Origin: an uncultured Chloroflexia bacterium
Lineage (GTDB): Bacteria > Chloroflexota > Limnocylindria > Limnocylindrales > CSP1-4
Assembly (NCBI GenBank): GCA_963734535.1
Contig: CAVTHS010000007.1
Location: 128,001-192,000 of the forward strand
DNA: 64,000 bases
Direction: 5' to 3'
Under the pieces are notes generated by a model. That model was not told the origin of the DNA, did no database searches, and worked only from the letters and a program-made list of their open reading frames with translations. The number at the start of each line of letters is the position of its first letter. Positions within the stretch are counted from its first letter, which is position 1. Both the position numbers and the translations under genes were made by a program. This document shows positions 29,622-49,573 of this stretch, in pieces.

Positions 29622-31097
29622 TTGGTGCACAGTGACGAGTCGACTGAACGGGATCACCGTGCCAAGACAACGCCGGGCGATGACTTCAAGGGAAAGGCGG
29701 GAATCCCGCACGTGAGCCGTTCGCTCGAGACATGGCGACCGAAGTACTGGACGATCATCCGTTCCAGCGCCGCGCAGTTCCTCACCCCGCACGCAGATCC
29801 GGCGGCACGAATCTATCGTGACCTGCTGCAGCCGAAACTGTCGGAGGACATGCGGCACGAATTGCGCTCACTGGCGGCGGGAGTAGTTCGGCTGGCGCAG
29901 GGGTTCCTCGCCTCCATTGCCGGGAGGCGGCCCGCACGGTCGCGTTCAAGGCAACCCTACCTGCTGCTGGTCACGCCCAGGGAGTGACAAGTACGCACGT
30001 GAAGAGCGAGAGGTCAAGCAGGCATGTGCGGCACGAGGACTGCCCATCCTGAGGGTCCACTCCGACACGAGGGGGATCGCGTCGGATGACGATAGGGACC
30101 CTGCTGTTGCGGGATGTTCTCACCCCTCTCGATTACTGCCGGGTGCTGTGTCTTTGGCTGGCACGGTGCGCTGGTGCAATGCGCTGGTGGTTCTCCGGTG
30201 ATCGCAAGGCAAGAAGTCTCTCCGTTGCCGCGATACCCGGCATTCGTCAGTACTACCTCGATCGTGCCTTCGCCCGGCGGATCGAATCGCTCCACGGCAG
30301 ACCGCGCGCGGTCCTGACCATCTCCCCCTGGTCGGACGTGTCGGTGGCGATCGTCGACCACATGAGGAAACGCGCGATCGCTACTGCCGGCATCAGAACC
30401 CAGACCACCCTTCAGCTCGAAGAGCACCTGGTGATCAACACGGACGTGCTGTTCTGCAAGGGTGTTTGGGAGAAGGGATTGTATGCCCGTCTCTTTGGTG
30501 GGCATGGCCCCGCCCTGGTGGATGGATGTCTGCTCAGTCTGCCCGAGGAGTACGATCTCGAACCCCTTGCCCTGCCCGACGATTTTGTCCTGCTGTTGGG
30601 CACCGCGCGCCAATTCAACCAGGACGAGACGGACTACCGGGACGCCTGCCGCCTGCTTGAACAGGTGGCGGAGGCTTCGGGTTTGCCTGTTGTCTACAGA
30701 GCGCATCCTGCTCACGCTGAAGATGCGACCCAATTCATGAGCCGAAACGCCGCCCGTGGGAACGCCGTTGTTGTCACCGATATCCGTCGCAACCGCGAGT
30801 TGATCGATCGGGCATCGCTGATCGTCTCTGCGCACACCACGCTTCTCTACCAGGCGATGCTTATCGGGGATACCGGCGGTCATCGTCAACGCGGACGCGC
30901 CGGGCTCCCCGTCGGACGAGTTCCACGGCTCGCCCCTGACACGCGTCGAGCCTGAGCAGCTGGACCGTATCAAGGACTACGACTGGCGAGCCCTCCGCGA
31001 CTCCGCCGAGCACGCACGAGAGTGGTTCAGCCGCAACTACTTCCTCGACAAGGGCGCCGCGTTCCTGGTGGATTCCCTCCTTGAGCACGCTCCGTGA
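29622..31097 (+). CDS. GT-B-like protein, candidate nonulosonate (sialyl-type) transferase; several frameshifts
   Basis: ORFs 29622, 30086 and a tail ending at TGA 31097; YRAHP and IVSAHTTLLYQAMLIG motifs. Confidence 0.45.
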
Positions 31098-31104
31098 TGC
31101 GGTG

Positions 31105-32313
31105 ATGCAGATCCTCCTCGTAAGCCCGGGAATGCCCTTTCCGGGGGAAGCCGGCTCTCCTCGGACATACAACCTGGCCAGGCGTCTCTCTGCGCGGCAC
31201 GACATCGCATTGCTCCTTCTCTCGTCGGCCGGAGATGGGTACGACGGGGACCTCGCCAAGTTCGAAGCCGAGGATGCCCCCTTTGCCTCGGTGACGGCGG
31301 CAACGGTGCACCAGGGCGTCGGCTCGGTGGGCGCGAGACTGGCGAACGCCCTGATCGGCAATCCCTGGTTCGCCACCCGCTGGATTCGCGGGAGCGAGCA
31401 CGCACGGGCCGTTGCCGCGGTCCGGAGGGCGAGCAACGGCAAGGATGTGGTCTGGGTTGACAGCCTGCCGATGCTCCAGTATGTCGAGAGCTCCGGGTTG
31501 CCCCTGGTCGTCGACGAGATCGACTACGTCAGCAGGCTCTCGTTCGCTGAGGCCGGGGCGCGAACCACGCTCCTGGGGAGGCTGCTGGGCCGCTGGCGCG
31601 CTTCGCTCGTACGAAGGTACGAGAGACGGCACCTCAAGAATGCCGACGCGGTGGTTCTCATCTCACGCGTCGAGGCGGAGATGATGCTCGGCGACATCGG
31701 GGTGAGAGCCGACGTGGTGTTGAACGGTTGCGACACCGATTTCTTCGTTCCCACCAGCGAAGCGCCGTCACTGCCCGGGTCGCCATCCCTCCTGTTCGTC
31801 GGGAATTTCCGGTATGAGCCGAACCACGATGCGGCAACGTACATACTGGACGAACTCACGGGTAGCATCGTCGAGGCATTTCCCGAGGCACGGATCCATC
31901 TCGTCGGTCCCCCACCGGACCCGGGATTCGTGAATGTTCCCGACCAGGTTGAGGTGGTCGGCTTCGTTGATGACGTCAGGCCCTACTACGCGGGCGCGGA
32001 TGTGCTGATCTGCCCGCTGCGCTACGGCACGGGGCTCAAGAACAAGGTGCTCGAGGCCGGGGCGATGGAGTGCGCGATCGTCGCATCGAGCATTGCCGTC
32101 GAAGGCATCGCCTTCGAGGATCGCACCCATTACCTGCGAGCCTCGACGACGGCGGACTACGTGGCCAGGATTGGGGAGGCGGTTGCTCGGGACAAGGCCT
32201 TTGGGTCGCTGTTGGGGCGAAACGCCAGGCAGGCAGTGCAGAGGAACTACAGCTGGGCGAACGAGGCGGCGAAGCTCGAGTCCATCCTTGCGCGGGTGGC
32301 TTCGCGCACGTAG
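31105..32313 (+). CDS. Glycosyltransferase family 4
   Basis: NGCD, FVGNFRYEPN, GFVDD, PLRYGTGLKNKVLEA. Confidence 0.88.
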   Translation: MQILLVSPGMPFPGEAGSPRTYNLARRLSARHDIALLLLSSAGDGYDGDLAKFEAEDAPFASVTAATVHQGVGSVGARLANALIGNPWFATRWIRGSEHARAVAAVRRASNGKDVVWVDSLPMLQYVESSGLPLVVDEIDYVSRLSFAEAGARTTLLGRLLGRWRASLVRRYERRHLKNADAVVLISRVEAEMMLGDIGVRADVVLNGCDTDFFVPTSEAPSLPGSPSLLFVGNFRYEPNHDAATYILDELTGSIVEAFPEARIHLVGPPPDPGFVNVPDQVEVVGFVDDVRPYYAGADVLICPLRYGTGLKNKVLEAGAMECAIVASSIAVEGIAFEDRTHYLRASTTADYVARIGEAVARDKAFGSLLGRNARQAVQRNYSWANEAAKLESILARVASRT

Positions 32314-32341
32314 TGCGCCGTCGCTCCCGTCCATCGGCTCC

Positions 32342-33646
32342 TCAGGCGGGCACTGACGGATCGGGGACTTCCACCAGCAGACCATGCTCGGCGAGCCGCT
32401 CGGCCAAGGGGTGCAGGTCCGCCACGGGGACCCCGATGATGTCGCTGATGCCGATCAGGTCGTTCGAGCCGTCCGCGTAGGCAAGGAGATCCATCATCGC
32501 CCGGACGATGTGGAATGTCTCTCGTGTGCCAAGCGTCGGATAGAGGCCCCGGCGGCCCAGCTGGGGTTCCCCGAGGCACGTGGTGCGATAGACCTTGTTG
32601 CGCTCGAGGAGCTCGAGGCAGTCGCGCAGGATGGAGAAGCCGCCCTCGAGCCCGGCAGGCGTGACGAGGTCCAGGTCGTCCAGCGACGTGTGGTACTCGG
32701 GGTACTCCTGGTACTTGGAGCGCATCACGGAGACCACGGGCAGATCGATCCCGGGACTGCAGTACTGGCGCTCGTCACTGCCGCGATCCAGGTAGGAGTA
32801 GCGGGCAAAGCCGGGGTGCCTGGCGGTCAAGGCGTGGACCGCGACCCGGTCGGCAAGCGTCCCCCCGGTTCGCGACGGCAGGAAGGAGAACGCCCGCTCG
32901 TCGCCGATGCAGGTCAGGTTGAAGCCCGCGACCGTGTTGGCCTTCATCTCCCCCAGGTGCGCCTGCAGGTACGTGAGCGATCCGATCGTCTCGGGAATGA
33001 AGACGATCCGGTACGTGAGCCGTCGCGGCCTGCTCGCGATCCATTTCGCCAGCCAGGTGGTCACGACCGGACCCGAGAGCTCGTTGTTGGCCATGGAGGG
33101 ATGGCAGACGTAGGTGGACAGGAGCACCTCCCGGGATGTGGCACCCGGGATGATCAGCTCCCCGTAGGTGAGGGATCCTGCCTTCAGCTCGCTGTCGATG
33201 ACCGCCCGGTATCGCCCGTCCTTCAGCGTCTGCCGCTGCGCGTGGGTCAGGCAGAAGCCCCAGCGTGGCTCGTAGTACGAGGTCACGTAGGGAATCGCGT
33301 CCGGCAGGCTCTCGAGCGAGTGCAGGTGCTCCTGCAACTCGGCCAGCGAAACGGTCGTATCCACGGGCACCGAGTAGCCGACCACGTGGAGGTTGTTGGC
33401 CCGAAAGTCGACGATCCGCTCACCGCGCTCGTCGAGGATGTACGCGTCCCGGATGTTCCATTCGAGTGGCACGGTCCAGTCGAAGACCGGGGTGCCGGAC
33501 GGGACCTCGTGGATCGTCAGGGGTATCTGCTCCCCGATGATCCTGAGCGTCTCCCGCACGCCGTCGCCGGTGATGCTCCGGCAGATCGGGAACAGGCGCG
33601 TCGCCAGCTCGTGCATCGCCGGGCCGCGGTCGTCAGAACCTTCCAT
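32342..33646 (-). CDS. DUF4910 aminopeptidase-like protein
   Basis: [64 protein letters not shown]. Confidence 0.88.
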
Positions 33647-34694
33647 CGCGCAGATCTTCCTGGGCTCGACGATAGTCCTCGTGCCGGCCCACGTCCTGCC
33701 AGTACTCGATGATCGGGAAGCCGGCGACGACCTGCCCTTCCTCCAGGAGACGGTGGATGAGGTCGGTCATGTCGAAGCGGCGGCCGCCCGGGATGTAGTC
33801 GCAGGCGCTGGGCTCGAGCAGGTAGATGCCGGCGTTGATGAGGAGCGTGAGGCGAGGCTTCTCCTTCAACTCCGTGACGCGGGCGTCATCGCATTCCACG
33901 ACGCCGAACGGCACCTGCACCTCGTGCACACGGACGCCCACGGTCAGCAACGCGCCGTGCTTCTGGTGGTAGCGCAGCATCTGCGGATAGGACACCCGCG
34001 TGAGGATGTCGCCGTTGATGACCAGGAACGGCCCGCCGGGCCTCTGGATGAGCTTCAGGCCTCCGGCCGTCCCCAGCGGCTGGTCTTCGTTCGAGTAGTT
34101 CATCCTGACCCCGAAGGCCCCGCCGTCACCGAAGTGCCCGACGATGCTCTCGGGCAGGTAGTGGGTGGTGAGGTGCACCTCGCGGATGCCGGAACGCCGC
34201 AATTGCTCGATCGTGCGCTCCAGCAGCGGGCGCTCGCCCACGGGCAGCATCGGCTTGGGCACGTGTTCGGTGAGGGGCAGCAGCCGCTTCCCGTAGCCAC
34301 CGGCCATGATCACGGCCGACAGGTCAGTGCTGACCTCGGCCACGAGGTTCTTGCGGAGGAGGAGGTCGAGGAGCATCCCCGTGTCATCGACCACGGGCAG
34401 ATGGTTGATGTCGTGCTGTAGCATGACCTCGGAGCGCTTCCGCCGCGGAGATGGTGCCGTCGGCGACGACCGGGCTCAGGATGGCGATCGTCTCGCTGGG
34501 TGCGTCGAGCGGGACCTTGCGCAAGATGGCGCGCCGGATGTCGCCGTCGGTCAGGAGACCGCGCAGCTGCGCCCGGGTGCGCACAGGACCAGCGCGCCGG
34601 TCCCCGCCCGGTCGAGTTGCGAGATGGCATCCGCGATCGACAGCTCGGGTGGCGCGATGACGCTGTCGAGGTACTCCTCCTGGGTGGCCTCCAT
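33633..34694 (-). CDS. CBS-domain nucleotidyltransferase (PtmE-like), frameshifted
   Basis: [13 protein letters not shown] (CBS), [12 protein letters not shown]...PKPML, PLGTAG, INGDIL, NAGIY, WQDVG. Confidence 0.88.
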
Positions 34695-34696
34695 GG

Positions 34697-36096
34697 TCAG
34701 CGCGGGCCGACCGGCGCGGCTGCGCTGTCCGCCGGGGCATTCAGCACGCGTCGCACGGACTGACCGGTGGCCGGATCGAGGTTGACGACGGTCGCCACGC
34801 CGATGGCGTTGTTGGCGGCGACCCCGATCGCACTCAGGGCCTGGAGCGGGAATGTCTCCTCGTCGAAGACGTAGCGCCAGCGGTGGAACGGCTCGTCGAT
34901 GTCGAGATTGTCGTGGTGGTAGGTGCCGGCCACGGTCTTGAGCGCCAGCCAGGGCTGGGGGCCGAAGGTCGCGACGGTCGACCGGATGTCCAGCGTGTGG
35001 CTCGCATCGCCGGTCGCGACGAGCGATACCTCGAGCTCGCAGGCCGGGGCGAGCGGGAGGTGCAGGGCTTCACGCATCGCCTCGATGGCCTCGCAGAACT
35101 TGACCGGCACGTCGGGGAAATCCCGTCCCACGCGCTCGAGCAGCCCGCGGACCCCGTCGACGTCGGGCCGGATGTCCCGGAAGTCGTGGTCGGTGAAGGC
35201 CAGTACCACGGGCCGCTCCTCCTGGGCTTCGCGGAAGGCCTGTCGCACGTGGTCCTCGGTGAGCAACCGGTATCGAGTGCCGACGTTGAGACAACGGCGA
35301 TCCACCGCCGGCAGGCGCCCGGTACCTGGTAGTCGTCGTGTGCCGGATGGTATGGCTCCCAGGTAGCGGGGGCGCGGCGCCAGTCGCCCCAACGACCGTC
35401 CTCAAGGCCGGACTGAGCCCTGTCCTCTTCGGAGGGCGTTGTCGCCTGACTGGAGAGATCGAACGGGATGAACTGCTCGAGAAACCAGTGACTGTCGGGG
35501 CGGATGACATGAAATCCGGCTCGATGGGCGGCTGGGAACCACTGCCTGTCGATGACCCGACGGCAGAGGATCTGCTGCAGGCTGTCGGAAGACGCCCACC
35601 AGTGGGAGGCGCAGCGATGAGCCTCTCGCCGGAAGTTGTGGGGGTGATAGTGGAAGTGCACGCCATCGCGCGACGAAGCCAAGTCCCGGACCAATCCTCA
35701 GGTAGTGGTCGAAGACGTTGTGATAGCCGATGTCCCGTCGCCTGGGGTTGGCGTCGTAGTCGACATGGTCCACGCAGAACCAGTTGTAGACCCAGCCGTG
35801 ACCTTCGGAATCGAGCGTGCGATCACGAAAGCCGGTCGACATGCACTCGGCCAGCATTTCGTCGACCTTGTCCCAGGTGTCGTTGTAGGCCAGCAGGTGA
35901 GGGTCTACCACCTTCCGGACGGCCGTCTCGTTGCCGCCTAGGTCGACCTCGCCGGCCTGCAGGCGGCGAAGCAAGGCGGCGCTGGGCTCGAGGTCGAACC
36001 CGAAGATCGACTTAGACGCTCGAAGGTGGCCTCTACCGACTCGTGGAGAGGACCCTCAGTATCGATGCAGTGGACGACGTGAACGGCGCTTGCCAT
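34697..36096 (-). CDS. Uncharacterised putative metal-dependent hydrolase (deacetylase-like), several frameshifts
   Basis: MASAVHVVHCIDTEGPL, YNWFCVDH, HFHYH, AFTDHDFRD in successive frames. Confidence 0.7.
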
Positions 36097-36124
36097 CGCG
36101 CTCCTCGGGCCGGGGGCTCCCGGC

Positions 36125-37177
36125 CTATTCGAGATCCTCCCAGCGGATCACTTGGTCTTCTACCACATCATCGGCAAGTCTGCGCCCGACTACATAGCGA
36201 AGTTCGTCCGGGCCGATGCCGGTGCCCGGGCGCTTCGCGTCGACGTCGTGCTCGGTCAGGACGTGCCCGGCCGGCAGCGGCTCGCGGGCCACCAGGCTCC
36301 TCCTGAACTGCCTGCGCTTCTCGAACTCCGCCTCGGTCACCGTCCGCCGGGCGCTTCCCAGGGCCTGGAAGACCTCGCGCCCTTCGTCCACGATGGTGCG
36401 CATCTCCCGCGGATCGGCCGAGATGGCATGGTCCCAGCCCTCCATGTCCTTGTCGAGGGTGAAGTGCTTCTCGATGAAGCAGGCGCCCAGGGCGATGGCG
36501 GCCAGGGGGATGGAGGTCCCCAGGGTGTGGTCGCTGAAGCCCACCGGCACCTCGAAGGCTTCGCGCAGCGTGGCCATGTTGCGCAGATGGATGGTCGCCG
36601 GGTCCGGGGGGTAGATGGAGACGCAGTGGAGCAGGACGATCTGCTCGTTGCCCTGCGCCCGAACGGTCTCCACCGCCTGTTCGATCTCCCCGAGGGCGGC
36701 CATCCCCGTGGAGATCACGACGGGCCGTTGCTTCGCGGCGACGTGGGCCAGGAGCGGGAGGTTGGTGACGTCCATCGAGGCGAGCTTGATGAACGGCACG
36801 TCGAGTTCGTCCAGCAGGTCGGCCTCGCCGGGCGAGAACGCGCTCGAGCAGAAGGCGATGCCTCGGCTTTGGCAATGTTCCCAGGCTTCGCGATGCTGCT
36901 CGGGGGTGAGCTGATAGGCCCTCACCATCTCGCGCAGCGAACCGAAGTGCTTCTTCTTGTCGGAGTACTCGGGATTCCGGTCGTACTCTTCGCGCGCGAT
37001 GAGGGACGACTCACTCCACGACTGGAACTTGACCGCGTGCGCACCGGCGTCGGCGGCGGCGTCGATCAGCTGGCGGCAGAGGTCCATGTCGCCGTTGTGG
37101 TTGGAGCCCACCTCGGCAACGATGTAGGGGGGGTCGCCCTCGCCGACGGACACGTTCCCCAGGCTCACGGTCTTCAT
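36125..37177 (-). CDS. N-acetylneuraminate synthase family (NeuB/LegI/PseI) with SAF domain
   Basis: IVAEVGSNHNGD, VKFQ, KLASMD, STGMA, LHCVSIYP, GFSDHT, IEKHFTLD, RRSL, KRPGTGI. Confidence 0.93.
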   Translation of the reverse strand: MKTVSLGNVSVGEGDPPYIVAEVGSNHNGDMDLCRQLIDAAADAGAHAVKFQSWSESSLIAREEYDRNPEYSDKKKHFGSLREMVRAYQLTPEQHREAWEHCQSRGIAFCSSAFSPGEADLLDELDVPFIKLASMDVTNLPLLAHVAAKQRPVVISTGMAALGEIEQAVETVRAQGNEQIVLLHCVSIYPPDPATIHLRNMATLREAFEVPVGFSDHTLGTSIPLAAIALGACFIEKHFTLDKDMEGWDHAISADPREMRTIVDEGREVFQALGSARRTVTEAEFEKRRQFRRSLVAREPLPAGHVLTEHDVDAKRPGTGIGPDELRYVVGRRLADDVVEDQVIRWEDLE

Positions 37178-38099
37178 GTTGGCTCCTTCCGGGTGGTCCA
37201 AAGATGCCGCAGGGCGGGGTAGGCAACGCACGACCACCAGAGCGGTGCCGGGGCCGCGGCATTCAGCGCCATGACGTATCGCTCGAGCTTGTCCTCGTCC
37301 AATGCGACGCGTCGGTAGAAGGCCTCGATGTCGGCCGTCACTTCGCGGACCCGGGCAAGGCGGTCGGGCAGGGCACCGGCCAGGGGGTGGTCCCGGAGGA
37401 TCTGGAAGTGTCTGCGGACCAGCTCCGTGTCGGAGCGGACCCGGTCCGGCGTGAAGGGCAGGCGGGTGCGCGCCATGTTCGCCCCGTGCTGGCGGTAGTC
37501 CATCCGCGCCACCGGGTCGAAGGCCAGCCGCGCCCCGCACAGCCAGGCCCGCGTGACGAGGTACCAGTCCACGAGGGCCGCCTCGGCCGGGATCGGCAGG
37601 CAACGCCCGAGTACGTCGGAGCGGAACGCGCTGTTCGAGAGGCCGTAGACGTTGTGGCGAGGCAGGACGTCGGCCGGTGCGGCGTCGGGCGGGAGCCCGA
37701 GCGACGAGCCGAGAGGGCGGCCGTCTTCGTCGACCAGGCGCAGGGCGCAGCCGGTGACGTCGCTGTCGCGGAGGCCCCGGCGGGCCGCCGCGACGCGGGT
37801 GGGGTGCAGCACGTCGTCGCTGTCCACGAGGACCACCGCGTCGCAGTGCTCGACGATCCGGGCCAAGGCTCCCTGGCGCACCTGGGCCGGTGTGTCGCCG
37901 GCGCAGGCCGGCACCCAGGTCGCCGGCGGACGGGTCCCCAGGGTCTCCTCGACGGCCTCGATCTCCAGCCCGTCCAGGCCGATCCACAGCTGGAAGTCCG
38001 TGTCGGTCTGGCGCTGCACCGACTCGTACCAGTCGGGCAGGAAGCGCTCGACGCCCGGGTAGACGGTCGTGTAGAGTGCCAGCGTGCCCTGGCAGTCAT
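37174..38099 (-). CDS. GT-A / family 2-like glycosyltransferase (frameshift near start)
   Basis: YTTVYPG, SVQRQTD, LVDSDD (DxD), DWYL, YRQHGAN. Confidence 0.7.
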
Positions 38100-38828
38100 C
38101 CGGCGGGATCCGGCTCCGGACCGGGCCGGCCGTCGGAGGCGAGCCCCATCAGGACGTCGGCCAGCAGCCAGTCGTCCTCGGTGTCGATGTCGAGCCCGTG
38201 CGTCCAGTGGATCTCCCAGCCCGTCCTGCCCGCCAGGTGGAAGGTCCCCTCGCGCCGCAGCGCGTCGGTCGTGGCCCACCAGACGGCGCCCGTCGGGCAG
38301 AAGAGCTCCGGCAGGTCCTGGCTGCGCTGCGTCATCGCCTCCGCGAAGAGCGGTGCGATAGTCAGGTCGGACGCGCGGCGCATCGCCCACCAGGGGTTCT
38401 GCCAGCCGTAGCGCACGACCGAGATCTGCGCCGCGGCCTGGTCTCGACGAACTGCCGATGGCTGGCGACGACGTCGTCGGCGGTGCGCAGCGGACAGTTG
38501 GGCATCAGCTGGCACACCTGCTCGTACGCCTGCCCTGCCGGGCCGAGGCGCTCGAGGACGTCGATCGTCGCCCGCGAGACGGGCGTCATGTCGTCGGCCA
38601 GGGCGGGGTCGCGCAGGAAGGGCACCTCAGCGCCGTGGCCCGGGCGATCTCGGCGATCTCGGCGCTGTCCGTCGTCACGACCACCCGGTCGAAGAGGCCG
38701 CTCTCGACGGCCGCCTCGACCGTGTAGGCGAGCAGCGGCCGGCCCTGCATGGGCCGCACGTTCTTGCGCGGGACCCGCTTCGAGCCTCCCCGGGCGGGGA
38801 TCACCGCGAGGCGCGCCGTCGCGCTCAA
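38096..38828 (-). CDS. Acylneuraminate cytidylyltransferase (NeuA/LegF/PseF), frameshifted
   Basis: IPARGGSKRVPRKN, EVPFLR, LMPNCPLR, RSQDLP, GAVW, DIDTEDD. Confidence 0.9.
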
Positions 38829-39462
38829 CCGATCCTCCTGGCGGGACGCCCGCGTACGTGCCCGGGACGGCGATGTCGGCCGTGACCACCGCTCCGGCAC
38901 CGATGAGGCAGCCGTCCGCGATGCGCACGCCGTGGATGACCACGGCTCCCGCTCCGACGAAGGAGTGGCTCCCGATCGTGACTCCGCCGCTGACCGTGGC
39001 CCCGGGAGCGATGTGGACGTTGTCGCCGAGGCGACAGTCGTGCTCCAGGGTGGCGTTGGTGTTGACGATGCAGGCGGCGCCGGTCGTGACGCCGGTGTTG
39101 ACCACCGCCCCGTCGAAGACGACCGTGCCGGCGCCAAGCTCGACCTCGATGTTCACGACGGCGTCCGGTGAGACGATGACGGGGAACTGGTACCCCAGGG
39201 ATTCGAGCTGCCCTGGAGCGCGGCGCGCCGCGACGAGGCGTCGACCTTGCCCACGCCCATGATCGCCGCGCAGCCGGGGTGGCCGCGAGCACGTCCGGAA
39301 GCACGCGGTCGTCGCCCAGGCAGGAAGCGCCCAGGAGGACGCCGACGTCGCGGGAGTCCGTGTAGCCGGCGATGTCCAGGGAAGCTTTCGCAGGACGCTG
39401 ATGAGCACCTTGGCGTGGCCGCCCCCGCCGATGACGACGATCGTGCGTTCCTTTCGGCTCAT
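38825..39462 (-). CDS. NeuD/PglD-family sugar acetyltransferase, frameshifted
   Basis: IGGGGHAKV, VNTNATLEHDC, HIAPGATVSG, GAGAVV. Confidence 0.88.
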
Positions 39463-40863
39463 CGCTCCACCCTCCCAGGCGCACATCGGGCCGCGGAAGC
39501 CGTCCCTGGGTCCGGCGCGCTCGCTTCGCTGTCCGCGCTGCAGGTGCACGATGAGCAGGTAGCTCACCACCATGAAGACCACGCGGCCGACCAGCATCGC
39601 CTGGGGGAAGGCGGTGAGCTGGACCGTGTCGCGGGTCAGGAGCAGAAGGCGCCACGTAGGCGGCGATCCCGAGGGCCAGGGCGGCCAGGTACATGTCCTG
39701 GCGCCGGACGACGTTGAAGACCGAGTCCAGCGGCCGGAAGCTGCTCACCAAGGGAAGCAGAAGTGCCCACTGCATGGCCGGAACCGCGTCCACGTACTGC
39801 GGGATCACGAAGTCGCACGAGCGGCTCGGCCGCGAACCAGCCGACCACGGCCACCACGGACAGGCCTGCGCATGTTGCCAACATCGGCTTGATCGCGATC
39901 CGGACGAGATGTCGGTGTTGCGCCCGGCCCCGTACTCCTGGGCCATGCGCGGGTAGAGCACCTGCGCCACCGCGGCCGGGACGACCTCCAAGGCGGAGAT
40001 GGCCACCAGTACCATGGCGTAGAGCCCCATGCCCTGGGTGTCCCGTGAAGCTGAGCACCAGAGTGGAGTTGATCACGCCCGTCCAGAGGCCGTAGACCTG
40101 CCCAACGGCGAAGATCGGTGCGCCGATCATGAACAGGTGCCTCAGGTCGGCCCAGTCCCAGCGCGGGCCTACCCGCACCGGTCGCCAGCGGAAGAGCAGC
40201 GCAGTGCTGGTCGCGCCCGCGAGCACCACGCGTAGGCAGAGTCCGTAGAAGCCCAGAAGGGCCACAAGCGCCAGCCCGACCAGGCCCGGCGGCCCCCTCG
40301 GCCACGTTCGACCCGGGCCAGCCTGACGAAGTCGTGCGAGCTGCGAAAGGTCATCTGCAGGTAGCCAGTGCCGAAGAAGATGAACATCGCCAGGATCGCG
40401 TTGGTGAACCAGCCGGCGGCCTGTCAGCAGCTCGCCATGGGCCAGCTGCCAGATCGCCACTCCCGTCAGGCCGGCGAAGACCACCGCACCCACCGCCAGC
40501 GCCCAGGCCTGGGCCGCGGAGGCGAGGCTGTGGGCCCGTTCGATGTCGCCCTTGCCCATGTAGAACGGCAGTTCGCGGTTGAGCCCGTTGAGGATGCCCA
40601 ACTGCGCGATGGACGCGTAGCCCAGCACCAGGCCGATGCCGGCGAAGAGACCCAGGGTGGAGGGCGCCACCAGCCGCCCCAGGAGGACGCCACCGGCCAG
40701 GCGCATGGCCATCGCCACGAGGTTGCCGCCGGCCAGCGAGCCGGCCAGGAAGAGGACCGACCGGCGTGGCGCCGCCCGGGGTCGTTCGAGCCTCGGCGGG
40801 AGTTCCGTGGACTCGGCCGGGTTTACCAGGCTCGAGGTAGCGACCGTCGATCAGAGGGTCCAT
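39459..40863 (-). CDS. Oligosaccharide flippase (Wzx), several frameshifts
   Basis: Multi-TM; LGILNGLNRE, GLYA, LYPRM, PQYVDAVP. Confidence 0.8.
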
Positions 40864-40872
40864 TGCGGCCGC

Positions 40873-42045
40873 CTAGTTCTCGTCTTTGGTGGCAGGATCA
40901 GCCGGCGGGGCCTGAGGCCGCGGGTCCGTCTCGTCGATGAGCGCCACCACGTCGGCGATCTGCTCGGGTGTGAGCGAGAGGGAGCACGGCAGGTTGAGCA
41001 GCGTGTCATAGAAGCGCGGGGCGTTGCTGATCTGGTAGGCCTGCATGTCCAGGTACGGCTTCTGCAGGTGGTTGGGATACCAGAGCGGGCGCACCTGGAC
41101 GTCGGCGGCCGCACAGGCTGCCAGCAGTCGGGCTTGATGTCGGCGCTGTAGCAGAGGAACCCGTAGAACCAGCGGTTCGCCTCGCTCCACGCGGGCTGCT
41201 GCACCAGGCGCGCCGGACCCAGCGCCTGCTCGTACAGGGCGAAGTTGGCGCGCTTGGTCGCGATGCGCTCGTCCAAGGTTCTCCAGCTGCGCAAGGCCGA
41301 TGGCGGCCAGGACGTTGTTCATGCGGTAGTTGTAGCCGACGCTGTTGTGGATGTACTCCACTCCGTCCTCTTTGGCCTGCGTGGTGAGGTAGCGCGCCTG
41401 CCGGGCTACCTCGTCGTCGTTGGTGAGTATCGCGCCCCCACCGCCGGTGGTGACGATCTTGTTGCCGTTGAAGCTCAGGCAGCCGATGGCCGCGAGACCG
41501 CCGCACTTCCTGCCCTTGTAGAGCGAGCCGAGCGATTCGCTGGCGTCCTCCACGACCGCCAGGCCGTATTCGGCCGCCAGTTCCAGGAGCGGGTCCATGT
41601 CGACCGAGGTGCCGAAGACATGCACCGGTACGATGGCAGCGAGTCTTCGGCCCGAACTGCGGTTGGTCGTGCGGCCGTCACGCACGGTGCATTCCTCGGC
41701 CAGGAAGCGCCGCACGGCCTCCACGTCCAGGTTGCAGTACTGGTCGCAGTCCACGAACACCGGCCAGGCGTCCACGTAGCGGACCGCATTGACCGGGGCG
41801 ATGAAGGTCACCGCGGGCACGATGACCTCGTCTCCGGGCTGCACGCCCGAGAGCATGAGCGAGATGTGTATGGCCGAGGTGCCGCAGTTGCAGGCGACCG
41901 CGTGCTTGACGCCGATGTAGTCGGCCAGTATCTCCTCCATCCGCCACACGTACTCGCCGTTCGCCGAGATCCATTTGGTGGCGATGCAGCGGGTGATGTA
42001 TTCGAGTTCGTGCTGGCCTAGGGTAGGCTCGGACAGTGGGATCAT
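40873..42045 (-). CDS. LegC-family (DegT/DnrJ/EryC1/StrS) aminotransferase, 3' frameshifts
   Basis: IPLSEP, TFIAPVNAV, VPVHVFG, VEDASESLGS, SFNGNKIVTTGGGG, GYNYRM. Confidence 0.9.
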   Translation of the reverse strand: MIPLSEPTLGQHELEYITRCIATKWISANGEYVWRMEEILADYIGVKHAVACNCGTSAIHISLMLSGVQPGDEVIVPAVTFIAPVNAVRYVDAWPVFVDCDQYCNLDVEAVRRFLAEECTVRDGRTTNRSSGRRLAAIVPVHVFGTSVDMDPLLELAAEYGLAVVEDASESLGSLYKGRKCGGLAAIGCLSFNGNKIVTTGGGGAILTNDDEVARQARYLTTQAKEDGVEYIHNSVGYNYRMNNVLAAIGLAQLENLGRAHRDQARQLRPVRAGAGSGAPGAAARVERGEPLVLRVPLLQRRHQARLLAACAAADVQVRPLWYPNHLQKPYLDMQAYQISNAPRFYDTLLNLPCSLSLTPEQIADVVALIDETDPRPQAPPADPATKDEN

Positions 42046-42055
42046 GGGTCGCTCG

Positions 42056-43021
42056 CTACGAGTTGGTGTACCTCGCCGCGTAGGGGTCGGTGATGAGGCC
42101 GTCCTTGAGCGCGACGGCGATCTCCCGGATGCCGTCCGGCAGGCGCATCTTCGGGACGAACCCGAACGCGCCTATCCGATCGAAGCACACCCGGTAGTCA
42201 CGAGGGTCTTCGTCTCTCTCGACGTAGCGGAGCTTAACGGGGATCTGGGCGGCCACTTCCTCGGCGATCATGCGCTTCTGATAGTTCTCGTCGTTGGCGC
42301 CCACATTGAAGGTTCGGCGGGCCACCAGGCCGCGATCCGACTCGAGGATCAGGGCGACGGCGCCGGCGATGTCGCGCACGTGGCAGTAGGGGCGCCAGAA
42401 CTGCGGACCGAAGATCTCGAGCTCTCCCTTCAGCAGGGCATCGCGGGTGAACTCGTTGATCGTCAGGTCGAAGCGGGGGCGGAGCGAAAGCCCGTAGACG
42501 GTCGCGAAGCGCAGGATGGTGAAGTCGACGGACGTCTGGCGCTGGAGGAGATGCTCCTCGAACTGGACCTTCAGCTGGGCGTAGAGGCTGACCGGCCGGA
42601 GCGGGGCCTCCTCGTCGAGGAGCGCATCGGACTCCATCTTTCCGTAGTTGCTGCAGGTGGAGGCAAAGACGAAGCGGCCCACGCCGTGCCGCTCGCAGCG
42701 TTCAAGGAGGCTCTTCGAGCCTTCCCAGATGGTCCGGGTGGCCAGTTCGGGCTGCGCTTTGCAGGCGGGATCGCCGACGATCGAAGCCAGGTGCACCACC
42801 GCATCGAACCGTGCTCGGCGAACAGGCGTGCCAGCTCGGCAGGGACGCAGATGTCGGTCTTGCGGAACGTGAAAGCTGCCGTGCGACAGGAGGTCGAGCA
42901 GGGATTCGCCGCCGAAGAGCAGGGCGTCCGCGACGACCACTTGGTGGCCGCGCGAAAGCAGTTCGCGGGATACCATCGATCCGACATAGCCCGCACCGCC
43001 GGTGACCAGGACCGTGCTCAC
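42056..43021 (-). CDS. NAD-dependent epimerase/dehydratase
   Basis: VTGGAGYVGS, ASIVGDPAC, ASTCSNYG, YAQLK, RFATVYG, WRPYCHV. Confidence 0.88.
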   Translation of the reverse strand: MSTVLVTGGAGYVGSMVSRELLSRGHQVVVADALLFGGESLLDLLSHGSFHVPQDRHLRPCRAGTPVRRARFDAVVHLASIVGDPACKAQPELATRTIWEGSKSLLERCERHGVGRFVFASTCSNYGKMESDALLDEEAPLRPVSLYAQLKVQFEEHLLQRQTSVDFTILRFATVYGLSLRPRFDLTINEFTRDALLKGELEIFGPQFWRPYCHVRDIAGAVALILESDRGLVARRTFNVGANDENYQKRMIAEEVAAQIPVKLRYVERDEDPRDYRVCFDRIGAFGFVPKMRLPDGIREIAVALKDGLITDPYAARYTNS

Positions 43022-43076
43022 GCTACCTCCATTGCGCACGCTGGACTACATCGACCGCGACCAGGCAGTCTAACAG

Positions 43077-44180
43077 TTAATCGGCACCGTACTCCTCTCG
43101 ACGTATGCTAGCTTCCGGGCTGCTTCGTAGCCGAGTGCTCGGAGCTCGGCTTGCGGGAGCAAGCCGCCTCCCGTCGATGATCAGTGGCCGTCGCATGGTG
43201 TCGCGGAGCGCGGCCCAGTCCAGGTCTCGATAGGCCGGCCACTCAGTCGCGATCACCGCGACATCCGCGCCCCGGAGCGCCTCCTCCACAGTCTGGCACG
43301 ATCACGAGGTCGGGGAGGACCCGTCGGGCGTTCTCGCCGGCTGCTGGATCATGGGCCCGCAGATCGGCGCCCTCAGCCAGAAGGCGAGCCGCGAGGCGCA
43401 GCGCAGGCGAGGACCGGACGTCGTCCGTGTCGGCCTTGAACGCAAGGCCGAGAAGCGCGATCACGTTTGCCCGCGACCCCACCGACGGCATCGGCGATCC
43501 GCCGAGCGAAACGTCGCTGGTGGTCCGCGTTCGCGTCGGAGATCGCGCCGGCGAGATGCATCGGAAGTCCGCGGTCAAGCCCAGCTGTGGACATGCTGCG
43601 GACCTCCTTGGGCAGGCAGCTCCCGCCGAAGCCGTAGCTCGGTCGCATGTATGTATGGCCGATCCGCGGATCGTGCCCGATCCCTTCGAGCACCGGTCCG
43701 ACGTCCACCCCCAAGTCCTCGGCGAGCCCGGCCACCTCGTTCGCGAACGTCAGGCGGAGGGCCAGAAAGACGTTCGAAGCGTTCTTCACGAGGCTCGCCT
43801 CCTCGGCCCGCATGACGAGGAGCGGCGTTCCTGGCTGCGCGAAGGGCGCCAGTCACGAGCGCGAGCGCGTCGGGGTCTGGGTGGTCGCGCGAAGGTCCCG
43901 ACGACGACCCGCGTGGGCCTGCGGATGTCCTCGAGAGCGCTTACCCTGACGCAGAAACTCGGGAGCGACGAAGAGCCGCTCTGGCGAAATCCCAGGTCGG
44001 CTCGCCAGTCGCGCCGCCGAGCCAACCGGCAAGGTGCTTCGGATCACGCAGGCAGCTCCAGCTGGCGATGGCCGGGGCAGCTTCGTCGAGGGCCCGCGCG
44101 ACCTGCGACACATCAGTTGAGCCAGTGTCGTCGATCGCGAATTGCGAGGGTACCTATGGATCGCGTCACACATGTCCGCG
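43077..44180 (-). pseudogene. UDP-glucose/GDP-mannose dehydrogenase family, 5' end missing and frameshifted
   Basis: IRSTLPVG, PEFLRQG, KNASNVFLA, GFGGSCLPK, GLAFKADTDDVRSSP, ATEWP, DGR; no N-terminal GxGxxG. Confidence 0.7.
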
Positions 44181-45299
44181 CGCCCGTCGGGCTCCTCGAG
44201 AAGGAGCCGGAGCTCGCCGCCCACCAGACCGGCCGCAACAGCGGCGTCATCCACTCCCCGAACACGTACGCGCCGGGCTCGCTCAAGGCGCGCCTCTGCC
44301 GCGAGGGAATGGGCGCCGCCCTCGCATTCGCCGACGCTCACGACATCCCGTACGACATCTGTGGAGAGCTGATCGTGGCGACGACGCCGGCGGAGCTCCC
44401 GCGGCTCGCGGCGATCGCGGAGAAGGCCCAGGCGAACGGGTCGGTCCTCCGCGAGCTCGGACCGAGGCGATGCGCGAGGTCGAGCCGCACGTCGTCGGGC
44501 TCCGCGGGCTCCACGTGACGTCCACTGGGATCATCGACTGGCGGCGCTTCGCGCTCACGCTCGCCGACGACCTGCGGGCGCGCGGGGCCGTGATCCGTAC
44601 TCGGGCGGAGGTGACCGCGATTCGCCAGTCGAACGGCGAGGCCTGGTCCTCGAGACGACCGCCGGCGCGTGGCTTCCCGCAACCTCGTCACGTGTGCCGG
44701 GCTCCAGTCGGACCGCCTGGCGGCCATGACCGGCCATGCCTCGGACATCCGGATCATTCCGTTCCGGGGCGACTACGCGGTCCTCCGGCCTGGAGGCCCG
44801 ACACTATTGCAGGACGCTGATCTACCCGGTCCCAGACCCGCGCTTCCCGTTTCTCGGCGTCCACCTGACCAGGCGGATCGACGGCGCCGTGTGGGCCGGC
44901 CCGAACGCCGTCCTCGCCTTCGGGCGCGAGGCCTACCGGCGCCGTGACCTCGACATGCGCGAGCTCGTATCTGTGCTCGGCTTTCCCGGCTTTCGCCGCC
45001 TGGCGCTCCGCTACTGGCGAATGGGTGGCGCCGAGATGGTTCGCGACTGGAGTCGACGGCTCTTCGTCCGGGCACTGCAGGCCTACACGCCCGCGATCAG
45101 CCTCGGGGATATCGCCTGGGGGCCGTCCGGGATCCGGGCCCAGGCGCTGCGCCGCGATGGATCACTCGTCGAGGACTTCGCGATCGGCGGCGGCGAGCAC
45201 GTGCTCCACGTCCAGAACGCGCCCTCGCCGGCGGCTACCGCGTCACTGGCGATCGGCCGTGAGTTGGCCGAGATGGCAATCACGCGCTTCGGGATCTGA
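44180..45299 (+). pseudogene. lhgO: L-2-hydroxyglutarate oxidase (LhgO) family, 5' end missing, frameshifted
   Basis: LEKE...HQTGRNSGVIH, IYPVPDPRFPFLGVH, GPNA, SGIRAQA, NAPSPAATASLAIG; FAD-binding GxGxxG absent. Confidence 0.75.
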
Positions 45300-45368
45300 G
45301 GCCGAGCGGGTCGAACAGTAGATGCCGAAGTGCGCACGGGGTCTGTCCGAGAGCCATCCAGGCACCAC

Positions 45369-47343
45369 TCACGGTCCGTATTGCACGCCGACCACGATGT
45401 CGCGATCGAAGGTGACCGTCATGGTCGCCGTCGCGCCGCTGACGGCGAGCTCCCGGCTGGCCGCCGTGATCCGGTAGCCGTCCGGCGCCCGGATCGTGAG
45501 CGTGAGCGGCTCCGGGAGCATGCCCGGCTGTGCCTGGATGGTGAGCCGGTAGGTCCCGCCGGTCGCGTCGACAGCTCGCCGCATACGGGCTGGTCCACGA
45601 GTACTCGAGGCTCGTCTGGCCCGGCGGGATCTTCAGGTACGTTCCGATCGCCATGCCGTCCAGCCTCGTCCTCCACGACGGCCGGGTCGGTCACGGGCGT
45701 CAGGCCGCCCCCGGAGACCGACTCGACGCGGCTCCGCTCGGGGACCAGCGACCCGGAAGTACATCCCGAGGATGCGGCCACCGACATTCGTCATCGCAAG
45801 GTAGGGGGCACCGTCGGGGGTGTCGACCCGGTTCTCCCACGTCGTCGTGAGCGTGTTCCGGGCGTTGCCGACCGCGTCGATCTGCACCGCGAGATCCATC
45901 GTCCGCGTCGTCCACGCCGTTCAGCTTCGACGCCGGCGCCACGTTCGAGTCGACCGGGTAGACGTAGTCGCCCTGGATCCTGCCGGATCGCCGCCGCCGA
46001 AGCCGCCGTCAGCGGCGAACGCCTCGTCGGTCGCATCGCGGAACCAGGCGAGCAGCAGGTGCTCCTGTCCGATACGTCCCCGTCGCCCCGATGACGTCGC
46101 CCCAGCGACCGAGGCGGCAGCGCGAGGAGGACGCCGAGGAGCTGATCCGCGAACACCGACAGAAACGCCTTCGCGTCCTCGCCGGGCTTCCGGGGCGGCC
46201 CGGGTCAGCTGGAGGACCTTCAGCGTCGTCTCGCCGGACGCGATCGTCACGTCGTAGTCCGGGACGGTGATCGGCCCGGTGACCTTCAGGAGCTCGTCGA
46301 TCGTGTAGGTGGTGATCGCGAGGACCCCGTCGATGCGGCGTCACCCGATTCGTTCGTGTAGAGCCGGAGCGGCGTCCTGCGCGCTCGTCGGGAAGTCCGG
46401 CGACCAGCCGGCGTCCGCGAGCTGCCAGGATTGCGTCGGGCCGAGCAGGTAGTCGGCCAGCTCCTGCGGCGGCTTGACGAACGGGTAGTCGTTCGTCACA
46501 GTCCAGCGGCGAGACGTTCTGGAAGCGGCGCTCGGTGATGCGGCCCTTGTCGAACGCGATGATCCCGTAGCTCCCGATGAATCCGCCGCTGGGACGCAGC
46601 TCCGCGGGGTCCTGCGTCAGGACCAGGTAGCGGCGCGGCCCGTCCCAGCCCAGGATCGCCGGCAGCCGCGCGCTGACCCGCACGTACGCGTCGAGAAGCG
46701 GGCCGTACTTGTCGATCCGCGTCCGCATCGCGTCGCGGACGCTCTCGACCTGCCCGATCAGGCCGTCCGGGACGCTCGCCAGCGCCTGGCGCGCGCTCTC
46801 GACCGAGGCGGCCGCCGACACGGCGCGGTCGCGCGACGTGGCCATCAGCTCCACGAGCTGCGAGAGTGCCGAGGCGTTCTTCGGATCGGCGGCCTGGGCC
46901 TCGCGGATGTCGACGAAGCGACGGCCGAGGGTCAGGCCCTGGTCGACAGCGTCGAGAAGGTCCCCGGCGGCTGCGACGACGCTGTCCGCGCCGCGAACGT
47001 TGGACGCGGTCAGCGGCAGCGCCCGGGCGAGGGCGATCAGCGGGTCGCCGGCCAGCAGGCCGTGCAGCCGGTCGAGGCGCGCTCGGGCGGCGGCCGCGTC
47101 GGCATCCAGCGAGTCGATCGTGGCCCGGTCGATCCCGAGGCCCGCCTCCTGCACACGTCCGACCATCGTCTCGAGGTCTGTCCGCAGCACGCGCCCCTCG
47201 TCCAGTGCGGGCAGGTAGCGGAAGAGCGCGAGCGCACCGACGACCAGGAGGAGGATGACGCCACCGCCGGCCACGATGACTCGGCGGCGCGGGCGCGGCC
47301 GCCTGGCTGCTCCCCGGTCGGCGTGGACTGGGTCGCCCGTCAC
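45369..47343 (-). CDS. DUF4012-domain membrane-anchored protein, frameshifted
   Basis: N-terminal TM, helical bundle, PRRYLVLTQDPAELRPSGGFIGSYG, DAGWSPDFP, TGPITV, YRLTIQAQPG. Confidence 0.8.
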
Positions 47344-48005
47344 GTCTTGGGAACGGTGATGACCACGAATCGCGGCGCCGTGGCGTAGTACGACGTCGAC
47401 GTCTGGAGGGTCAGCTGTTCCGTTGGTGTCGGCTGGAGGTACTTCACGGCGTCGAACGGGACCTTTGGCAGGATCTCCGTCACGACGTACGTTCGCGCCG
47501 TCCCGTCGACGAGGTCAAGCTCCACCGTGTCGCCGACCCGGATCTGCCAGAGCGGGAGGAACATCCCGACACGCGCATGCCCATAGATGTAGATGTTCGA
47601 GCCGCCGCCCGGCCACCCGGAGCTCGGGTAGTGGGCCGCCTTCCCGATCGGGGCGTCGATTCCGTCGCCCTCGATGATCGCGAGGTCGATGCCGAGCCGT
47701 GCGATCCGGATGCGGTTCGCCCGGATCCCCGCCCCGAGCGCCGGGCTTGGCGATGGCGGAGCTGCGCTTGGCCCGGCGTCTGGCCCGGAGGCCGTCGGGG
47801 CCACGGTAACGAGCGGCAGATCGCCGAGCGCGGGCGACTCGCTGGCCCCGATCCCGGGTGTCGCGGAAGGCGTCGCGCTGCCGGCGGACCCACCACCGAG
47901 CGCGATCGCGAGACCAATCGCCAAGGCGACGACCGCGAGGGCCACGCCGAAGATGGTCCGGCGCCGGGAACCTTCCCGGCTGGGACGCGGTTCCGATTCG
48001 GTCAT
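47340..48005 (-). CDS. Sortase-family protein with Ser at the catalytic Cys position
   Basis: N-terminal TM, RIRIARLGID, IYGHAR, GDTV, LTLQTS (usual TLxTC), PRFVV. Confidence 0.85.
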   Translation of the reverse strand: MTESEPRPSREGSRRRTIFGVALAVVALAIGLAIALGGGSAGSATPSATPGIGASESPALGDLPLVTVAPTASGPDAGPSAAPPSPSPALGAGIRANRIRIARLGIDLAIIEGDGIDAPIGKAAHYPSSGWPGGGSNIYIYGHARVGMFLPLWQIRVGDTVELDLVDGTARTYVVTEILPKVPFDAVKYLQPTPTEQLTLQTSTSYYATAPRFVVITVPKT

Positions 48006-48066
48006 GGCAGCGACTCGCCGGGTCCGGTCACGCCCTCATTCGCGATTGCCCGGCGAACCGCCGCGT

Positions 48067-48591
48067 TCAGCGGTGCGCGGAGGCGAGGCGACGGATGCCG
48101 AGGCCACCGACGAACACGAGGGCGAGGGCTGCGACAGCGAGGGTCCCGAGCGGCGCGTCCTGGGACGGGACGTCTCCCGGCAGCGTCGACGTGTTCGGAA
48201 GCACGCCGCCGGTCGGGCCGCACGATGCATTCAGGACCGCAGAGGCGCTGACGGTTCCAGCAGTCGCCTGCACGTTCCGGGCGACGCTCACGGGCCCGAG
48301 TGTCACCGTCGTGGTGGCCACGCCATCCGCATTGGTGATCGTCGGCGTCTTGTTGACCTTGTCGCCCGTATCTCCAGCGAGGAACGACCACTCGACCGAC
48401 TGTCCGGCGACCGGCGCGCCGTTCGCATCGACGAACGTCGCTGTCAGCGTGAATGGCGTTCCGCAGGCGATGACGCCGGATACCGTCACGGATCCCTTGA
48501 CTTGATCCTGATATCCAAGGGCGGTCATGGACGTCACCAATAGGACGGCCGCGGCCGCGAGACTGGCAACCCACCAAGTCCGGCGCTTCAT
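48067..48591 (-). CDS. Secreted Ig-like (Big_1) protein with LPNTS cell-wall sorting signal
   Basis: Signal peptide, LTATFVDANGAPVAGQSV...TNADGVA, LPNTS + TM + RR tail. Confidence 0.8.
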   Translation of the reverse strand: MKRRTWWVASLAAAAVLLVTSMTALGYQDQVKGSVTVSGVIACGTPFTLTATFVDANGAPVAGQSVEWSFLAGDTGDKVNKTPTITNADGVATTTVTLGPVSVARNVQATAGTVSASAVLNASCGPTGGVLPNTSTLPGDVPSQDAPLGTLAVAALALVFVGGLGIRRLASAHR

Positions 48592-48811
48592 CGTTCGGTC
48601 TCCCTCATTGCGGGGCGGCCCGCCCCACTGCCCCCGGGAGCCCGCAGACAACTTCTGCGGGGCCCGACTCGCGCACAGGCATTAGTACCGTGCCGCGACC
48701 GAATTCATCCTACACGCAGGCGCAATACTGTGCGTACTTCTTGGCCATCGCGAGCGCGGACACGGTGCGTCGCGGCAACGCCGTGCTGGGACAGTGCCGG
48801 ATCCAGGTGTG

Positions 48812-49573
48812 TCAGGTGGACCCGAGGTCACCCAGCCGGCGGAGCAGCTCGGTGGCAACCGCCCGGTAATCGTCAGCGGCGCGGCTCGTCGGGGCATACC
48901 GGGTGATCGGCAGGCGCGAGGCCGGTGCCTCGGCGAGGCGGATCGCCTCGCGCACCGACTGTTCCAGGACAACCGGGCCGAACTGCGCCCGAAGCTGGCC
49001 GATCACCCCCCGGACGTGACCGGTCCCGTTCACGCGGCACGCGACGATGCCGAGGAGCTCCAGTCGTGGGTTGACGTGCCGGCGGGCTCGCTCGATCGAC
49101 GCGATCACGCTCGCCACGCCCGAGAGCCCGAGCGCGTGGGCCTCGATGGGGATGACGACTCGATCGCTGGACACGAGCGGCGCTAGCGACAGGTACCCGA
49201 GCGTGGGTGGCGTATCCACGAGGATCAGGTCCCAGTAGTCGGGCAACCGTGCGAAGCCGCGAACGATTGCGAGCCCGGTGTCGTTCCGACCCTTCTCGCC
49301 GGACGGGACCAGGCTGGGGCTGGTTGGGATGAGGTCGACCCCGGGCGCCGTCGAGGCGACCACGAGCTCGGAGGTCCGGATGCCGCCCGCCGAGAACTCG
49401 ACGAGCCCGATCGGCGATTCGCGACCCCCGAGCCAGTCGGTTGCCGAACCCTGGGGATCGAGGTCCACGACGAGCACCTTGAGGCCGCGCTCGGCAAAGG
49501 CGGCCGCGAGGCTCACGGTCGTCGTGGTCTTGCCACTCCCACCCTTGTTGTTCGAGACGGCGATCGTTCGCAC
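48812..49573 (-). CDS. ParA/Soj family ATPase
   Basis: NNKGGSGKTT, VDLDPQGS, VDTPPTLG, IRLAEAP. Confidence 0.88.
   Translation of the reverse strand: MRTIAVSNNKGGSGKTTTTVSLAAAFAERGLKVLVVDLDPQGSATDWLGGRESPIGLVEFSAGGIRTSELVVASTAPGVDLIPTSPSLVPSGEKGRNDTGLAIVRGFARLPDYWDLILVDTPPTLGYLSLAPLVSSDRVVIPIEAHALGLSGVASVIASIERARRHVNPRLELLGIVACRVNGTGHVRGVIGQLRAQFGPVVLEQSVREAIRLAEAPASRLPITRYAPTSRAADDYRAVATELLRRLGDLGST

Follow-up and report, generated by a model that had tools for sequence, protein, structure and literature searches.

Sortases are textbook cysteine transpeptidases, which are both drug targets and widely used tools for protein ligation. Among the canonical cysteine enzymes (PF04203, MEROPS C60; classes A, C, D, and E), those nearest by fold to the protein considered here are SrtA of Corynebacterium diphtheriae (6bwe, 5k9a), SrtC of Actinomyces oris (2xwg, 8t28), and SrtA of Streptococcus agalactiae (7s56). 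The protein is encoded on the minus strand of a 64,000-nucleotide (nt) stretch of DNA, here called the window, from an uncultured soil Chloroflexia bacterium (Limnocylindrales, CSP1-4; assembly GCA_963734535.1, contig CAVTHS010000007.1, positions 128,001 to 192,000). Its gene is the middle one of a three-gene cassette, preceded by the gene of an immunoglobulin (Ig)-like Big_1 protein and followed by a DUF4012 gene. The window sortase is real, is anchored in the membrane, and has a serine at the nucleophile position. The conservation of this serine, together with the fixed partners of the gene, points to an undescribed serine version of the textbook cysteine enzyme. The gene and its catalytic positions, numbered in the window, are as follows.

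47340-48005, minus strand: sortase-fold gene, 221 amino acids (aa), uninterrupted open reading frame
47892-47954, minus strand: N-terminal membrane helix of the sortase
Residues ~90-221, minus strand: catalytic domain, preceded by a Pro/Ala-rich linker
47577-47579, minus strand: His143 in IYGHAR, codon CAT
47403-47405, minus strand: Gln201
47397-47399, minus strand: Ser203 in TLQTS, at the position of the catalytic Cys, codon TCG
47370-47372, minus strand: Arg212 in APRFVV, codon CGA

The assignment to the sortase fold is based on both profile and structure. The protein matches PF04203 with 55.3 bits (cut-off 26.6) over profile positions 1-122 of 125. An AlphaFold2 model, built on a 118-sequence alignment, has a predicted local distance difference test score (pLDDT) of 95-99 over residues 90-221, and a Foldseek search of the PDB places nothing but sortases among its top matches, with classes A, C, D, and E represented (E from 1.7e-8, probability 1.00). 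In an alignment to the family profile, Ser203 falls on the Cys of the LTLVTC- and ITLITC-type motifs of solved sortases, and His143 and Arg212 fall on their catalytic His and Arg. Across the 118 sequences His143 is invariant and Arg212 nearly so. The catalytic Cys of the TLxTC motif that marks a sortase of PF04203 or MEROPS C60 is absent, Ser203 standing in its place, and the TCG codon is two substitutions away from TGY. The initial annotation of this DNA had read the same frame without a shift, the same His and Arg motifs, and the same TLQTS with its codon two steps from Cys; all of this agrees with the sequence. None of the NCBIfam class models reaches its cut-off (class E 26/160, class D 23.2/165, class F 17.6/166, TIGR01076 26.3/39.35 bits), and the protein therefore is not assignable to classes A-F by these models.

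The serine is real, conserved, and under purifying selection. A search returned 660 homologues at E <=1e-3, and the nucleophile was read in the 120 best of these (58-100% identical): 103 have Ser and 17 have Cys, and no other residue, such as Ala, Gly, or Thr, occurs there. Two sets of loci were then fetched with their surroundings. All 31 species-representative loci that show the motif have Ser (32 were fetched; L032 is cut by a contig end). The second set comprises 44 metagenome loci seeded with a Cys form, one of them truncated; of the 43 that show the motif, 35 have Ser and 8 Cys. Both sets combined give Ser in 66 of 74, the rest being Cys. Over 70 loci the nucleophile is encoded by TCG (34), TCC (25), TCA (2), TCT (1), TGC (5), or TGT (3); as all four TCN codons are used for one amino acid, Ser has been kept while its codon drifted. 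The median ratio of nonsynonymous to synonymous substitution (dN/dS, Nei-Gojobori) in the catalytic domain is 0.26 for 1825 Ser-Ser pairs and 0.25 for 23 Cys-Cys pairs. The initial annotation had asked whether TLQTS is conserved in homologues or is a sporadic variant free of selection; the counts and the dN/dS of 0.26 refute the latter. It had also proposed that the codon be confirmed in raw reads. Contigs of three other public runs cover the codon (X1 record 4, 46554-47717; X3 record 28, 47377-47495; X2, by depth in the bin) and the rows listed show no difference at 47397-47399, which lends weak support; the strong support comes from the homologues, in which Ser is conserved. The source annotation names given with the homologues are "sortase A" with no mention of the missing Cys; annotation pipelines thus label such proteins without remarking on its absence.

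The Cys-bearing orthologues sit in the same Big_1-sortase-DUF4012 cassette, beside the same LPxTST signal in the upstream protein. This signal is present at all seven Cys loci that have upstream sequence (L035, L037, L039, L052, L060, L062, and L097), so it did not co-vary with the serine. In a tree of 195 catalytic domains, from which the nucleophile column was removed, Cys forms appear at several places within the Ser majority, and at least seven changes are needed to explain them. The neighbouring DUF4012 gene, which is longer, allows an independent test of these swaps. In its tree, made from 23 loci and 618 columns, Cys loci L039 and L040 lie within a 99%-supported clade with nine Ser loci, and Cys locus L063 groups with two Ser loci at 100% support; these mixed clades force at least two independent Ser/Cys changes. 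Judged from the gene trees, Ser and Cys are interchangeable at the nucleophile position in this lineage. A position that takes Ser or Cys alone, while the substrate, the partner, the His, and the Arg stay fixed, is as expected of an active nucleophile and not of a dead site.

The presumed substrate is encoded 61 nt upstream of the sortase gene, with its own ribosome-binding site and a complete sorting signal.

48592-48621, minus strand: GAGGGAG Shine-Dalgarno (ribosome-binding) site before the ATG of the Big_1 gene, read from the sequence
48067-48591, minus strand: Big_1 gene, presumed sortase substrate, 174 aa, with a signal peptide and one Ig-like domain
48184-48201, minus strand: LPNTST sorting motif
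48094-48150, minus strand: C-terminal hydrophobic helix, 19 residues
48070-48093, minus strand: basic tail RRLASAHR

The protein matches PF02369 (Big_1) with 37.5 bits (cut-off 34.9; E 2.5e-9), and its C-terminus runs through GGVLPNTSTLPGDVPSQDAP into the helix and then RRLASAHR. The open reading frame, the Big_1 match, and the motif coordinates bear out the initial description of an Ig-like protein with LPNTS, a membrane helix, and a basic tail. All three parts of the signal are present and conserved, the motif being LPxT[S/D]T, without Gly. A pattern search found the signal in 65 of 77 loci; two of its 67 matches (L006 137-584 and L013 8339-8567) appear to be spurious. In consensus the signal reads [A/G]-G-L-P-[N/R/S]-T-[S 56 / D 9]-T(65)-L(50)-P(54), with the hydrophobic helix and basic tail after it; conservation thus reaches well beyond the presumed scissile Thr. 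In a loose scan of the 3.2-Mb genome, which gave 53 candidate tails, LPxT[S/D]T occurred in the Big_1 protein only, and the sortase therefore appears dedicated to its neighbor.

Three side observations may be added here. i) The active-site peptide Q-T-S-T-S (47391-47402) and the substrate signal N-T-S-T-L (48184-48192) share Thr-Ser-Thr, for which both genes use the ACGTCGACG nonamer, and in the sortase gene this forms a tandem ACGTCG repeat; the sharing is probably coincidence. ii) Elsewhere in the genome, in which no Cys sortase was found, a short open frame (G000:C10:261817-262071, minus strand) closes with LPSTG, a hydrophobic stretch, and GR, a canonical-looking LPxTG signal. iii) Contigs of a metatranscriptome run (X20) fall on the Big_1 gene region, 48016-48364, with 90-99% likeness, which is not proof of transcription; the public runs with small word shares (X2-X20) are no evidence of habitat.

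The gene order is fixed wherever it can be seen. Immediately upstream of the sortase gene there is a Big_1-like gene at 59/59 related loci that leave at least 700 nt for it, and immediately downstream there is an intact DUF4012 gene of ~650-700 aa at 67/67 loci that leave at least 500 nt. The complete cassette is present at all 52 loci that have room on both sides, which answers in the affirmative the initial question of whether the sortase travels with LPxT[S/D]T proteins and DUF4012. In the window, the DUF4012 gene begins at a GTG that overlaps the stop codon of the sortase gene (GTGA, 47340-47343). A scan of 45100-49000 found neither a sigma-70-like promoter nor a minus-strand terminator. 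Outside the cassette, tblastn with the window sortase gave extra matches ~3 kb upstream of it at two loci (L014 ~798, L018 ~886), which may be a nearby paralogue.

Serine forms extend beyond this family. When the 150 best of 1574 representatives (50% clusters) were aligned to the query, His occurred together with Ser in 46 rows and with Cys in 78, the rest being fragments or misaligned; other TLQTS groups are also found in this set. Gln at -2 from the nucleophile is present in 46/46 of the Ser forms vs 34/78 of the Cys forms, so the serine variant arises on an "LQT-x" background only. In a class-wide search at E <=1e-20, 73 of 201 genomes match, the window's own family accounting for 12/60 and a second family for 58/66; the source genome (G000) is counted here, as are four genomes marked as unpublished (G067, G106, G112, and G151). 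The Ser sortases of the second family are more distant, with 40-50% identity. Of 20 regions taken from this search (L079-L098), 17 show the motif: 16 have Ser, in "TLQTSTGPNxxDPRF", and one (G135) has Cys with LPNTST and DUF4012 adjoining. Within ±1.5 kb of the 16 second-family Ser loci, the pattern used found neither an LPxTST protein nor DUF4012, and their substrates would thus lie elsewhere. The source genome, 90% complete, has two PF04203 matches, both Ser, and no Cys sortase was found in it. The second match (G000:C14:80195-80911; L002 1243-1959, plus strand) is a 238-aa sortase-fold protein with 27.7 bits to PF04203, the motif VVLQTSEGP, and no conserved Arg; its gene is back to back with that of a thioredoxin-like CPPC protein.

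From these observations a working model can be drawn, in which the window protein works as a sortase with a serine nucleophile and serves only its neighbor, within a three-gene surface-protein cassette. We give this reading a probability of about one half. According to the model, the Big_1 protein would stay in the membrane through its C-terminal helix after secretion. The sortase would then recognize LPxT-ST, and Ser203 would attack the carbonyl of the Thr, with His143 as the general base and with Arg212, perhaps also Gln201, stabilizing the transition state. The intermediate would be an oxyester acyl-enzyme in place of the usual thioester, from which the Ig-like domain would be passed to a putative amine on the cell envelope. 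The DUF4012 protein would be a co-translated, membrane-anchored extracytoplasmic partner, possibly a scaffold or the acceptor.

Four points weigh against this reading. According to a passage of PMC4827206, Staphylococcus aureus SrtA loses activity dramatically upon the C184S change; serine is thus no trivial replacement for Cys. No extra acidic residue for a Ser-His-Asp triad was identified, side-chain geometry being unmeasured. Branch support in the sortase tree is weak, such that the well-supported branches force only one Ser/Cys change. Finally, the frame of the DUF4012 partner is broken in the window assembly.

The strongest alternative, which we nevertheless consider unlikely, is that the enzyme is an active serine hydrolase and not a transpeptidase. 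It would cut LPxT/ST and free the Ig-like protein from the membrane anchor, acting as a sheddase or maturation peptidase, and water would resolve the oxyester. All of the conservation evidence applies equally to this alternative, and so does the single dedicated substrate per genome. General enzymology also speaks for it, in that oxyesters undergo aminolysis less readily than thioesters. However, penicillin-binding proteins are serine enzymes with transpeptidase activity, and the Cys orthologues in the same cassette suggest that the ancestral sortase chemistry has been kept.

A non-catalytic pseudo-sortase is rated slightly less likely still. Such a protein would bind the LPxTST tail of its neighbor without cleavage, for instance as a chaperone or membrane tether, and the near inactivity of S. 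aureus C184S (passage of PMC4827206) and NCBIfam scores far under the cut-offs speak for it. Yet the position is Ser or Cys and nothing else in the 120 best of 660 homologues and in the 74 loci, with His143 invariant and Arg212 nearly so; Cys orthologues, presumably active, take the place of Ser forms within an unchanged cassette; and purifying selection is equal in the two forms. That only Ser and Cys alternate there, while His and Arg are kept, favors a serine nucleophile over a pseudo-sortase.

The initial annotation had put forward a more specific proposal, that the Ser nucleophile and the LPxTS signal are a co-evolved pair and that the protein may be ligated to a glycan or other acceptor, here weighed as a glycan made by the adjoining sugar island.

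30940-43900: nonulosonic-acid-type sugar island, with GT1, a DUF4910/DUF2172 protein, a nucleotidyl transferase, NeuB with a SAF domain, a cytidylyltransferase, a hexapeptide transferase, a DegT aminotransferase, an epimerase, and UDP-glucose dehydrogenase

The signal and the Ser sortase do co-occur, and the island does adjoin the cassette, but the proposal in this form is improbable on both counts. Co-evolution finds no support at the seven Cys loci, which carry the same LPxTST, and the 16 second-family Ser loci are without the signal in the ±1.5 kb searched. As to the glycan, the island genes are not kept beside the cassette: only a DegT-like gene recurs, at 9 of 76 related loci, and the adjacency therefore looks incidental or loose.

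Finally, an error of sequencing or assembly at the codon, or the decay of a pseudogene, can be set aside for practical purposes, since dozens of independent assemblies keep the Ser while its codon varies synonymously, the sortase frame is intact, and the rows listed for the other runs' contigs that cover the codon show no difference there, even though the neighboring 3.4 kb (43.1-46.5 kb) has many single-base insertions and deletions (indels).

These indels affect the DUF4012 gene.

45369-47343, minus strand: DUF4012 gene, first ~283 codons intact, then ~9 single-base indels in shift-and-restore pairs

With its breaks the gene matches PF13196 with 49.1 bits (cut-off 28) over profile positions 1-47 of 144 only, whereas an intact homologue (P0271) scores 107.9 bits. 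When this homologue was used in tblastn, one frame with 75% identity extended down to 46501; beyond this point the match (59%) is in another frame with three TGA stops. Four stretches are out of frame, ~46375-46340, 46197-46070, 45995-45917, and 45749-45560, and each returns to the same frame. Recoding at the in-frame TGA codons (46341, 45921, and 45633) was considered and rejected, because paired indels enclose the out-of-frame stretch in which each of these codons lies. Compared with the window, contigs from other runs have 1-nt indels at 45749, 45917, 46196/7, 46340, 46370-2, 46436, and 46500. Three consecutive genes in 43100-46500 are frame-split, those of UDP-glucose dehydrogenase (minus strand), a DAO/LhgO-type oxidoreductase (plus strand), and DUF4012 (minus strand), and the flanking genes are intact. 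The indels of this region are probably a local assembly error in a poorly polished stretch, although there may be real decay of DUF4012 in the source strain. The coupling of the sortase to DUF4012 through GTGA, as initially described, is thus seen in the sequence, but the broken frame from ~46500 to 45560 had been missed.

The DUF4012 family is enriched in Gram-positives, Chloroflexi, and candidate phyla radiation (CPR) bacteria, and one member is in an exopolysaccharide (EPS) cluster of Bifidobacterium; the passages of PMC6744442 and PMC5412050 that report this give no function. In a model of P0271 (pLDDT 78), a membrane helix and a long helical bundle (~20-232) are followed by alpha/beta and beta-sandwich domains. 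Against the PDB the model gave weak partial beta-sandwich matches at a template modelling (TM) score of ~0.19 (ITIH1, ribophorin/OST1, and N-terminal domains of M1 aminopeptidases), from which no function can be inferred, and a search of the ESM Atlas with residues 233-656 gave unnamed clusters alone (scores <=0.87). A predicted complex of a DUF4012 ectodomain (residues 44-656) with a sortase catalytic domain (96-226) scored 0.00, which speaks neither for nor against binding.

Returning to the proposed active serine sortase, a wider claim would be that sortases need not be cysteine enzymes; we put it at somewhat short of an even chance. A natural serine lineage of large size, dominant in a whole Chloroflexota class and present elsewhere, would work through an oxyester intermediate and swap freely with cysteine, and with DUF4012 it would constitute an unrecognized pathway attaching a single Ig-like protein to the envelope. 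A full-text literature search turned up no account of naturally occurring serine sortases, a provisional result as most subscription journals were outside it. If true, a natural and conserved serine sortase would change the mechanistic picture, and the enzyme would be oxidation-resistant and blind to thiol-directed inhibitors. The Ser and Cys orthologues with the same substrate would give enzymologists ready-made pairs for a direct comparison of nucleophiles, and the widespread DUF4012 family would gain its first functional context.

The window enzyme resembles the canonical sortases in its eight-stranded fold, N-terminal anchor, aligned His and Arg, TLxT-nucleophile motif, and adjoining substrate with LPxT, helix, and basic tail. 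It differs from them in having Ser for Cys, a signal of LPxT[S/D]TLP instead of LPxTG, and an invariable DUF4012 partner. Its closest cysteine relatives are the Cys orthologues of the cassette (P0025/L035, L039, L040, L063, and G135 locus L097), which are 65-78% identical and have the same gene order and the same LPxTST; these differ from the window enzyme in a TGC or TGT nucleophile codon in place of TCN. Streptococcus pyogenes SrtA, according to the titles of its entries with LPATS or LPATA peptides (7s4o, 7t8z), also accommodates Ser or Ala after the scissile Thr. That enzyme, however, is a Cys sortase in which such tolerance is a side activity, whereas in the window cassette Ser/Asp-Thr is the conserved native signal.

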